Source: an uncultured Candidatus Saccharibacteria bacterium (GTDB lineage Bacteria; Patescibacteriota; Minisyncoccia; Phycocordibacterales; UBA918). From it: a DNA stretch of 64,000 nucleotides. Made by a program: the position numbers and the translations under genes. This document shows, in pieces, positions 43,644-44,555 of the stretch (within the stretch, counting starts at the first letter, position 1; each line of letters begins with the position of its first letter). The notes beneath the pieces are model-generated. The model did no database searches and was not told where the DNA came from. It saw nothing but the letters and a program-made list of their open reading frames with translations. The stretch is from assembly GCA_964353135.1 (NCBI GenBank), contig CAYGTV010000001.1:18696-82695 (forward strand), read 5' to 3'.

Positions 43644-44555
43644 ATGGCCAACCGACATTTATCCCGTAGCATCGTTCTTCAGTCACTCTTTGAGTGGGAT
43701 TTAAATGCGCTTGAGAAGAAAGCCGTGCACGAAGTGCTTGACCGAAACGTTGCAGAATTCGCACCTAATAAAACCGACACTCCATTTATGGCAAAGTTGC
43801 TCGATGGTGTGATGTCAAAGCAGTCTGAATTGGATCTGGTGATCGAAAAGGCTGCTCCAGAATGGCCAATTGATCGAATTTCTCCTGTCGATCGAAATAT
43901 CCTCAGACTTGGTCTATACGAACTACTCTTTGCAGATCGCAAGGAGGTCCCAGCAAAAGTAGCAATCAACGAAGCAATTGAACTCGCTAAACAATTTGGC
44001 GGTGACAATAGTAGTCGGTTTGTTAACGGTGTACTAGGTGCGGTGTACAAAGAAATTGGTGAACCAGGCAAAGATGAACAAGGTGCAAAGCGTAAAAAGC
44101 AAGTTGCCTTTGAAGACATGCCCATTCAGCGACTGGCCGGTGCGGTAGTGTACGCCCAACACGAAGGACAGATGTATCTGGCTTTAGTACACGACATTTT
44201 TGGACACTGGACCCTATCAAAAGGAAAAATTGAAGATGGCGAGACGGTCGAGGCTGGTGCAGCACGTGAACTCAAAGAAGAAATTGGGCTTGATATAACA
44301 ATCGAAGCTGAGCTAGGTAATAATGAATACGTTGCTAGCAATCCAGAGTTAGGCAAGGTTCGCAAGCAAGTGCACTATTTCCTAGCAAAAGCAGAGTATC
44401 GGGAACTAGTGCTGGAACAAAAAGGTGGACTAGATGATGCCAAGTGGTTTAAAGTAGCCGAAATCCTTGACCTTAACTTTTATGAGGATATTCTGCCGAT
44501 TGTTACCAAGGCCATTACTATGCTCGTCGGTCGAGGAACACAAGAAATGAAATAA
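43644..44555 (+). CDS. nusB: NusB transcription antitermination factor fused to a C-terminal Nudix hydrolase domain
   Basis: aa 1-140 are NusB-like ([11 protein letters not shown]...[28 protein letters not shown]); aa ~155-300 carry a Nudix box [23 protein letters not shown] (GX5EX7REUXEEXGU). Confidence 0.75.
   Translation: [303 protein letters not shown]

Follow-up and report, generated by a model that had tools for sequence, protein, structure and literature searches.

In the 64-kb window of contig CAYGTV010000001.1 (assembly GCA_964353135.1), by which we mean the whole stretch of DNA analysed here, the gene at 43644–44555 encodes a NusB protein that carries a second domain, a Nudix fold of the type known from hydrolases of diadenosine polyphosphates (ApnA; Ap4A is the tetraphosphate). 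NusB is a core and well-studied rRNA transcription factor, and we know of no accessory domain on NusB that has been described. The fusion is real, old and syntenic. Its unusual and informative feature is an evolutionary signature: judged by sequence comparison and structure models, the catalytic Nudix box is evolutionarily dispensable, while the pocket residues and the fold are retained. The reading that we favour, and to which we give about an even chance, is that the protein would be a NusB-tethered binder of an adenine nucleotide or of an RNA 5' end for which hydrolysis is optional. We infer that the pocket binds such a nucleotide or RNA end and thereby modulates or localises the function of NusB.

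The gene is one uninterrupted open reading frame (ORF) in the ORF listing, with an ATG start and 303 amino acids (aa) followed by a stop codon. Its N-terminal part matches Pfam NusB (PF01029) at aa 7–136 (E 8.9e-37; 126.9 bits, cutoff 23.1; positions 3–133 of the 133 in the model). It also passes the NCBIfam equivalog model for nusB, TIGR01951, with 131.7 bits where 88.35 are required and with positions 2–130 of 131 covered. The C-terminal part matches Pfam NUDIX (PF00293) at aa 165–281 (E 8.1e-17; 61.9 bits, cutoff 21.1). The AlphaFold2 (AF2) model of the protein consists of two confident domains (mean predicted local distance difference test score, pLDDT, 89.7; predicted template modelling score, pTM, 0.64). 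An earlier reading of the window, made from the sequence alone, had described a complete N-terminal NusB of about 140 aa followed by a half with a canonical Nudix box, and it is borne out on both: TIGR01951 and PF01029 score above their cutoffs over the full domain, all peptides quoted there (the Arg-rich N-terminus included) are present in the translation, aa 194–216 fit the pattern GX5EX7REUXEEXGU at each specified position, and the catalytic residues of the box, its Glu residues among them, are all found in the window copy. The gene indeed lies between rpmF and rnc, all three on the + strand. The suspicion that the architecture had not been described also holds for the literature searched: a full-text search for NusB together with Nudix, Patescibacteria included, returned no paper on a NusB-Nudix fusion, and the named database records of the protein are labelled only 'transcription antitermination factor NusB'. 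The architecture is present in public databases, yet unremarked there, and both of its domains come from well-known families.

A search of 5.8 billion clustered proteins for relatives returned at least 120 clusters at 84–95% identity, all of about 300 aa with PF01029 and PF00293; their sources are NCBI, JGI, ENA and Logan assemblies, with contigs of 250–688 kb among them. An exhaustive HMMER scan of 1.84 billion representatives at 50% identity (E <= 1e-30) gave 158 matches, about 58 of which are full-length fusions with 29–58% identity to the window protein. From a scan of one genome per GTDB species, our species-level sample, 80 loci with a full-length fusion at 60–85% identity were obtained. 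A sequencing or assembly error that joins two genes by false read-through is practically excluded, as the identical in-frame junction recurs in hundreds of independent NCBI, JGI, ENA and Logan assemblies; this also disposes of the missed stop that the sequence-only reading had wished to see checked in related genomes, and the region that it had queried (about 44060–44110) is the inter-domain linker. Every informative title in the species scan names Patescibacteria (Paceibacteria/Paceibacterota, Kaiser-, Adler-, Nomura-, Taylor- and Lloydbacteria, Parcubacteria, Minisyncoccia), and the relatives of a divergent member, P0182 (36% identity), are labelled solely Paceibacterota, Minisyncoccia or Patescibacteria. 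In all orthologues found within this large class of host-dependent, ultra-small bacteria, the nusB locus is occupied by a gene with the Ap4A-hydrolase-type module. One bulk project of metagenome-assembled genomes (TPA_asm) titles its bins 'uncultured Candidatus Saccharibacteria bacterium' (loci L008–L012, L014 and many others, 77–81% identity). Equally close orthologues are titled Kaiserbacteria, Paceibacteria or Paceibacterota, and for those bins the Saccharibacteria label looks generic or wrong.

By sequence, fold and profile alignment the C-terminal half is of the ApnA-hydrolase type, and hydrolysis of Ap4A to ATP and AMP would be its putative activity. The nearest PDB sequences by phmmer are M. 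tuberculosis Rv2985/MutT1, Thermus Ndx1, Chlamydia CT771 and the Ap4A hydrolases of Aquifex and C. elegans; Ndx1 is an Ap6A hydrolase, and the PDB title of Rv2985 reads 'Nudix diadenosine polyphosphatase'. Foldseek gave the Aquifex Ap4A hydrolase 3i7u (template modelling score, TM, 0.89) and Ndx1 (1vc8, TM 0.87) as best matches, next to Rv2985, MutT1, the C. elegans (1ktg) and human (3u53) Ap4A hydrolases and CT771 (4mpo); TM to solved Nudix enzymes ranged from 0.73 to 0.89 on an alpha/beta/alpha Nudix fold, and the Nudix domain of NrtR was among the fold matches. The fusion-family profile aligned by hhalign to human NUDT2, in a sequence identical to PDB 3u53, with a probability of 97.9%. In this alignment K193, Y229, K241 and Y280 correspond to Lys42, Tyr82, Lys89 and Phe128 of NUDT2, and H188/W189 to its HW motif. 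In NUDT2, Lys42, Tyr82 and the His of the HW motif make up the P1-phosphate site, Tyr82 and Phe128 (Tyr or Phe in other species) stack on the adenine ring from either side, and Lys89 is the counterpart of the phosphate-binding Lys94 of P. falciparum (PMC4734340). The register places NUDT2 E110 opposite G262, with the conserved D264/D265 two to three residues off, in a loop where the alignment is unreliable at this identity. E209, position 16 of the Nudix box (E16), corresponds to NUDT2 Glu58, which has been changed to Ala in two engineered human proteins, 4ijx (by its entry title) and 1xsa (by its sequence). These mutants were reportedly made to trap ligands without turnover.

With the characterised Ap4A/ApnA hydrolases (NUDT2, the C. 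elegans enzyme, Aquifex aq_158, Ndx1, CT771 and the N-terminal domain of MutT1/Rv2985), which are its best sequence and structure matches, the fusion shares the HWTxxKG motif, the Lys/Tyr/Lys of the P1-phosphate site, the adenine-stacking aromatic pair and, in the window copy, the full box. It differs from them in being joined to NusB and in that the metal-binding Glu is replaced in most fusion orthologues, unlike in the characterised enzymes. None of the curated NCBIfam models that were scored reached its equivalog cutoff on the Nudix half. Identity with RppH was rejected (best model 29.4 bits against a cutoff of 118, others 18–19 bits against 116–241), as was that with MutT (28 bits against 148; TIGR00586 23 against 97.9; MutT1 41.4 against 475) and with the NAD diphosphatase NudC (34.1 bits against 158). 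Of the substrates that the sequence-only reading had listed, Ap4A and the chemistry of RNA 5' ends or caps fit best, the nearest relatives being ApnA hydrolases; the NudC, RppH and MutT models score far below their cutoffs.

The same reading had suggested that the fusion could couple antitermination or rRNA transcription to hydrolysis of a nucleotide. As the conserved reason for the fusion, hydrolysis does not stand: the Glu residues of the box, above all the Glu of 'RE', have been lost repeatedly, even in relatives that are 77–85% identical. Taking as canonical a box that keeps E7, R15, E16, E19 and E20, such a box is present in 37 of 81 species-level sequences, in 9 of the 58 distant full-length fusions and in 42 of 108 further orthologues (a third sample). 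E16 is kept in 39 of 78 species-level sequences, with at least 25 state changes in Fitch counts on a quick neighbour-joining tree, a figure that possibly overstates the independent losses, and in 14 of 58 distant fusions. At loci L007–L012, L014 and L043, whose proteins are those 77–85% identical to that of the window, RA, RK or RS replaces RE. Among the 120 closest clusters 86 have a perfect box and 34 fail the strict pattern, for example with the 'SKSKV...RAL.EE' type of P0086, P0113 and P0118. The pocket behaves differently. D184, W189, T190, K193, Y229, K241, W268 and Y280 show no substitution (100% conservation) in 77 species-level sequences, 25 of which have two or fewer of the box Glu residues, and conservation of the pocket residues is still about 85–90% in the degenerate distant set. 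H188 is present in the window copy and is less conserved than K193, Y229, K241 and Y280 (about 100%).

The extreme case is the sub-clade of P0182. All box Glu residues are lost there, E20 is changed to Lys, two members have a deletion of 4 aa in the box, and the domain has fallen below Pfam NUDIX detection. W189, T190, K193, Y229, K241, Y245 and Y280 are nevertheless kept in 9 of 9 sequences; W268 has been substituted in two of these, and all nine have Asn in place of D184. The model of P0182 has a pLDDT of 92, and its C-terminal half superimposes on the Aquifex Ap4A hydrolase 3i7u with a TM of 0.84. For P0182, P0207, P0279–P0284 and P0313, all fusions of about 300 aa, PF01029 alone is recorded, the C-terminal half being beyond Pfam NUDIX detection. 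Pfam-based censuses of domain architecture will therefore undercount the fusion. A second domain goes unmentioned in thousands of database entries that read simply 'NusB', and some of these domains have diverged past Pfam detection. Constraint was measured as the relative amino-acid divergence of the Nudix half against the NusB half with the box excluded, and not as dN/dS, since synonymous sites would be saturated at these divergences. The ratio was 1.09 for pairs with canonical boxes and 1.22 for non-canonical pairs; as it is just 1.09–1.22, the domain is not decaying where catalytic residues have been lost. An invariant pocket combined with optional catalysis amounts to a natural experiment that separates ligand binding from hydrolysis.

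The NusB half matches the solved NusB proteins of Thermotoga, Aquifex, E. coli and M. tuberculosis in sequence, chains from NusB-S10 and from complete antitermination complexes included. With the NusB half of the AF2 model, Foldseek returned 3imq, a NusB-S10 complex, at TM 0.88 and a root mean square deviation of 1.9 Å, as well as 3d3c and 1eyv. In Aquifex NusB, F122 stacks on U8 of BoxA, and E81 reads U8 and contacts H15 of NusE (PMC3177189). The counterpart of F122 is F126, invariant (100%) among the fusions, and that of E81 is D83, a conservative Asp for Glu that is conserved in 97%. Nothing in the sequence points to a loss of normal NusB function, and the half is intact and predicted to bind BoxA and S10 and to support antitermination. 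It is a full-length NusB (TIGR01951/PF01029) by sequence, fold, BoxA-contact residues and locus; the difference is the C-terminal extension of about 165 aa, which is absent from every characterised NusB and from the matched solved structures. At 44007–44009, N122 aligns with Asp118 of E. coli NusB, and Asn also stands at this place in the solved chain of the NusB101 variant (PDB 3imq, 'NusB101-S10 complex'); the position is not conserved in the fusion family. The 16S rRNA m5C967 methyltransferase RsmB/Sun likewise combines an RNA-binding domain of NusB fold with an enzyme-type domain and acts in rRNA biogenesis. Its N-domain, however, is a diverged paralogue of NusB and its partner a methyltransferase, whereas the fusion passes the nusB equivalog cutoff and has a Nudix partner. 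As an identity for the window protein RsmB/Sun was rejected: only the N-terminal region matches, at 23–64 bits against cutoffs of 269–540, and the methyltransferase domain is absent.

The locus bears on the history of the fusion. The gene rpmF lies directly upstream in 81 of 85 related loci, and rnc directly downstream on the same strand in 80 of the 81 with room for it; the order rpmF-fusion-rnc holds even for members at only 35–36% identity. The nearest stand-alone NusB proteins, P0208 and P0230 (140–144 aa, about 53% identity to the NusB half), are encoded directly after rpmF and are followed by a gene that starts with an RNase III signature. Since these unfused sister lineages have rpmF-nusB-rnc, that gene order came first. 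By position, the fusion gene is orthologous to the resident nusB, which gained the Nudix module at its C-terminus. The proximity of rnc, which could be taken as a clue to the Nudix half, loses its value here: the rpmF/rnc neighbourhood predates the Nudix addition, and the adjacency is therefore uninformative about the Nudix half specifically.

The two halves meet at a junction motif whose consensus in the clade of 60–85% identity is Y-K-E-[LIM]-G-E-P-G-K and which is absent at the C-termini of stand-alone NusB proteins. The linker that follows, measured from E137 to G166, is 23–37 aa long (median 28) in 78 species and 11–47 aa in distant members. Its modelled anatomy is that of a tether, and the relative orientation of the domains is unfixed (pTM 0.64).

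Taken together, we assume the following course of events. The resident NusB, which pairs with S10 and binds BoxA RNA in the complexes of rRNA antitermination, would still work as an ordinary NusB. In the Paceibacteria (Patescibacteria) it would have gained a C-terminal Nudix fold of the ApnA-hydrolase type by way of a charged and flexible tether some 25 residues long. The conserved task of this half would be to bind an adenine-nucleotide 5'-(poly)phosphate ligand in the Ap4A-hydrolase pocket; adenine-nucleotide binding is the simplest choice for the selected function because the pocket is invariant while the metal-binding Glu is optional. The ligand may be a free ApnA or ATP-like nucleotide. 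Alternatively, it may be the pppA or Np4A-capped 5' end of the nascent BoxA-bearing transcript held by NusB, and as NusB sits on BoxA in the nascent 5' leader of rRNA, the transcript's own 5' end is a natural candidate. Hydrolysis would then be an optional extra, discarded in many lineages, and the window copy with its intact box may also cleave its ligand, be it by ApnA hydrolysis, Np4 decapping or removal of a 5'-triphosphate (PPP). Such ligands have precedents. Bacterial RNA polymerase incorporates dinucleoside polyphosphates as RNA caps, and RppH, itself a Nudix enzyme, removes such NpnN caps (PMC7044304, PMC8833179, PMC13010140); NUDT2 converts PPP-RNA to 5'-monophosphorylated P-RNA (PMC8616924); and in CFIm25/NUDT21, which acts in RNA 3' processing, the site that binds Ap4A also binds RNA (PMC4856261). 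CFIm25 and the ADP-ribose-sensing regulator NrtR resemble the fusion in keeping the Nudix fold as a ligand- or RNA-binding module. They differ from it in partner and pathway, CFIm25 being eukaryotic and NrtR being fused to a DNA-binding winged helix-turn-helix domain, and in the fusion the catalytic degeneration varies between close relatives.

Several points weigh against a NusB-tethered binder. Besides the possible overstatement of independent losses mentioned above, E20 is invariant in the clade of 60–85% identity (78 of 78), which hints at a remaining metal or phosphate role there, and members that lack E16 are perhaps not fully inactive, since there are Nudix enzymes whose box is atypical and whose activity persists or has changed. 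W189, Y245 and W268 could be kept for the stability of the fold and not for ligand contact, and the conserved pocket could equally be a protein-protein interface. The AF2 models have no fixed inter-domain geometry (pTM 0.64–0.67), which leaves a physical coupling of the halves hypothetical. When the window was searched for the rRNA/BoxA target of NusB, Rfam found one tRNA and no rRNA. Finally, tblastn found no second NusB or Nudix gene within the 64 kb of the window; a second nusB may be located elsewhere in these genomes.

A narrower version of the binding model would make the protein a sensor: an ApnA alarmone, or the pppA or Np4A end of the leader, would occupy the pocket and thereby gate the assembly or persistence of the NusB-S10-BoxA complex, with intact-box versions resetting themselves by hydrolysis and box-less versions acting as pure sensors. 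We put this forward tentatively and hold it to be unlikely in this specific form. The cellular targets of Ap4A have long been unclear. If the pocket does bind ApnA or RNA 5' ends, the biology of dinucleoside polyphosphates or 5' caps would be linked to the machinery of rRNA transcription and processing; if the protein is in fact a sensor, Ap4A-type signals would have a direct target in the transcription machinery, and bacterial antitermination complexes a new accessory module.

Of the alternatives to binding, the one that survives best assigns the protein an active role as a co-transcriptional enzyme for RNA 5' ends, with hydrolysis as the main function at least in the lineage of the window. 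NusB/S10 docked on BoxA would deliver the Nudix domain to the 5' terminus of the rRNA leader during its synthesis, the domain would remove pyrophosphate or an Np4N cap, and the leader released by RNase III would thus be primed for 5'-monophosphate-dependent decay and NusB recycled. The perfect box of the window copy and of 86 of the 120 closest clusters is in line with such an enzyme, as are the ApnA-hydrolase type of the domain, whose member NUDT2 trims PPP-RNA, the removal of bacterial NpnN caps by a Nudix enzyme and the RNA-processing neighbourhood with RNase HII, RNase III and RNase R. RppH itself acts on RNA 5' ends and on ApnA, a chemistry that intact-box fusions could perform; it is, however, a stand-alone protein that is not recruited via NusB, and the fusion scores far below the RppH cutoffs (18–29 bits against 116–241). 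Furthermore, about half of the orthologues have lost E16 and other residues of the box with the rest of the domain still under constraint, and the adjacency of rnc is older than the fusion. We consider a conserved or lineage-specific enzyme of this kind rather unlikely on balance.

A structural adaptor, in which the Nudix fold would serve as a protein-protein module that contacts RNA polymerase, NusA/NusG, S4 or RNase III, would explain the conservation of the fold and of a surface patch in a domain that can do without its catalytic residues. Non-enzymatic roles of Nudix domains are recognised (PMC5389931), and SuhB provides a precedent for an enzyme fold as an integral subunit of the rRNA transcription antitermination complex (rrnTAC; PMC6614797, PMC6614801). 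SuhB is an enzyme-fold component of the NusB/NusE/BoxA-dependent complex of E. coli; it differs from the domain discussed here in having an inositol monophosphatase fold, in being a separate polypeptide and in having an experimentally established role, whereas a role of the Nudix domain in such a complex is conjecture. The conserved residues coincide one-for-one with the phosphate and adenine residues of Ap4A hydrolases, for which nucleotide binding is the simpler explanation. An adaptor is in our view distinctly unlikely.

It would also be conceivable that the fusion is incidental, a housekeeping ApnA hydrolase having been inserted between nusB and rnc and the stop codon having been lost in a streamlined genome, with the halves remaining independent. 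Reduced genomes often contain fused genes, the linker is disordered, a fixed domain-domain interface is not predicted, and a related stand-alone Nudix gene is found on a mobile-element-like contig. That protein, P0249 (L086, 4001–4453), is a true stand-alone Nudix protein of 150 aa with 47% identity to the Nudix half and a canonical box; its neighbours are a phage-type integrase, a DNA methylase and a Phage_rep_O-like gene, and nusB is not adjacent. A Nudix gene related to that half thus travels on a mobile element or phage, which may hint at a mobile source of the module; on the function of the fusion's Nudix half P0249 is uninformative. Against independent halves stand the maintenance of the fusion down to about 30% identity with a conserved junction motif and a bounded linker length, and the consideration that an independent housekeeping hydrolase would not lose its catalytic residues repeatedly under strong constraint. 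Moreover, no credible two-gene form, which could have served as Rosetta-stone evidence, was found among the related loci. We regard an incidental fusion as very improbable.

Two candidates for split forms were rejected individually. L094 (GCA_013565675.1, JACCDV010735530.1) has a single in-frame TAA at 941–943 that replaces the codon of the conserved Tyr135, and the frame continues through the linker past it (GAV-stop-KELGEP). The gene calls there are a 'NusB' of 133 aa and a 'NUDIX' of 141 aa with a TTG start, and the TAA is a sequencing error or a recent nonsense mutation. In L093 (a contig of Logan SRR10312498) the fusion is truncated at the contig end, and its apparently stand-alone Nudix protein P0215 is an artefact of this truncation; positions 1–21 of the contig are a Nextera transposase adapter (..AGATGTGTATAAGAGACAG), which is directly followed by the middle of the fusion gene. 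For P0237 the contig is too short for a judgement.

Table 1 Coordinates of the NusB-Nudix fusion gene, its parts and its neighbours in the window
Feature	Position	Strand	Basis or remark
nusB-Nudix fusion gene, complete	43644..44555	+	Pfam NusB and NUDIX; two-domain orthologues of ~300 aa across many independent assemblies
NusB domain, aa 1-137, seven helices	43644..44054	+	TIGR01951; AF2 helices H4-138, pLDDT mostly >85; Foldseek
Junction motif Y-K-E-I-G-E-P-G-K, aa 135-143	44046..44072	+	(Nearly) invariant in 78 species-level orthologues
Inter-domain linker, aa 138-160, K/E/D-rich, predicted disordered	44055..44123	+	pLDDT <50 at aa 145-150
Nudix-fold domain, ApnA-hydrolase type, aa 161-303	44124..44552	+	PF00293, phmmer, Foldseek, hhalign
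H-W-T-L-S-K motif, aa 188-193 (K193 = NUDT2 Lys42, H188 = His of HW motif)	44205..44222	+	
Nudix box, aa 194-216, canonical in window copy	44223..44291	+	Read from sequence
Y229 (NUDT2 Tyr82; P1 phosphate and adenine stacking)	44328..44330	+	
K241 (NUDT2 Lys89, P. falciparum Lys94; phosphate site)	44364..44366	+	
Y280 (NUDT2 Phe128; second adenine-stacking aromatic, Tyr/Phe in family)	44481..44483	+	
RNase HII	42107-42700	+	Upstream of fusion; DnaE also upstream
rpmF (L32), upstream neighbour	43169..43555	+	Pfam Ribosomal_L32p
Hairpin with U-run, terminator-like, between rpmF and fusion gene	43556..43597	+	RNA folding
rnc (RNase III), downstream neighbour	44705..45415	+	Pfam Ribonucleas_3_3 and dsrm
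Three type IV pilin/pseudopilin-like genes	45436-47258	+	N_methyl motif, first also T2SSG; between rnc and smc
SMC-like ATPase, 747 aa	47261-49504	+	SMC_N across aa 2-732, no hinge-domain match listed
RNase R/II-type exoribonuclease (RNB + CSD + S1)	49804-51738	-	Downstream of fusion

The surroundings of the fusion gene (Table 1) are rich in nucleases that process RNA or DNA, namely RNase HII, RNase III and the RNase R/II-type enzyme. The L32 protein encoded by rpmF has 128 aa, of which the L32p domain covers only aa 6–55, the remaining about 70 aa being a low-complexity tail rich in K, A and E; in relatives its length is 73–126 aa and the length of the tail varies. Behind the rpmF stop codon lies a near-perfect hairpin (AAAAACACCGUCAGCUGACGGUGUUUUUG), flanked by an A-tract and a U-tract, with a folding energy of -22.3 kcal/mol (z = -4.8; none of 200 shuffled sequences reaches this stability). 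It looks like an intrinsic terminator of the bidirectional type; a consensus terminator scan missed it and it was found by direct folding. Between the fusion gene and rnc there is a gap of 149 nucleotides (nt; 44556–44704), as compared to roughly 5–100 nt in most related loci, and no feature was recognised in it.

Further downstream, where the window has three pilin-like genes between rnc and smc, close relatives have two. Many other relatives have smc about 700–1,100 nt past the end of the fusion gene, with little or no room for genes between it and rnc. The SMC size of 747 aa recurs in L001 and L003, and the protein looks like a short, possibly hinge-less SMC variant.

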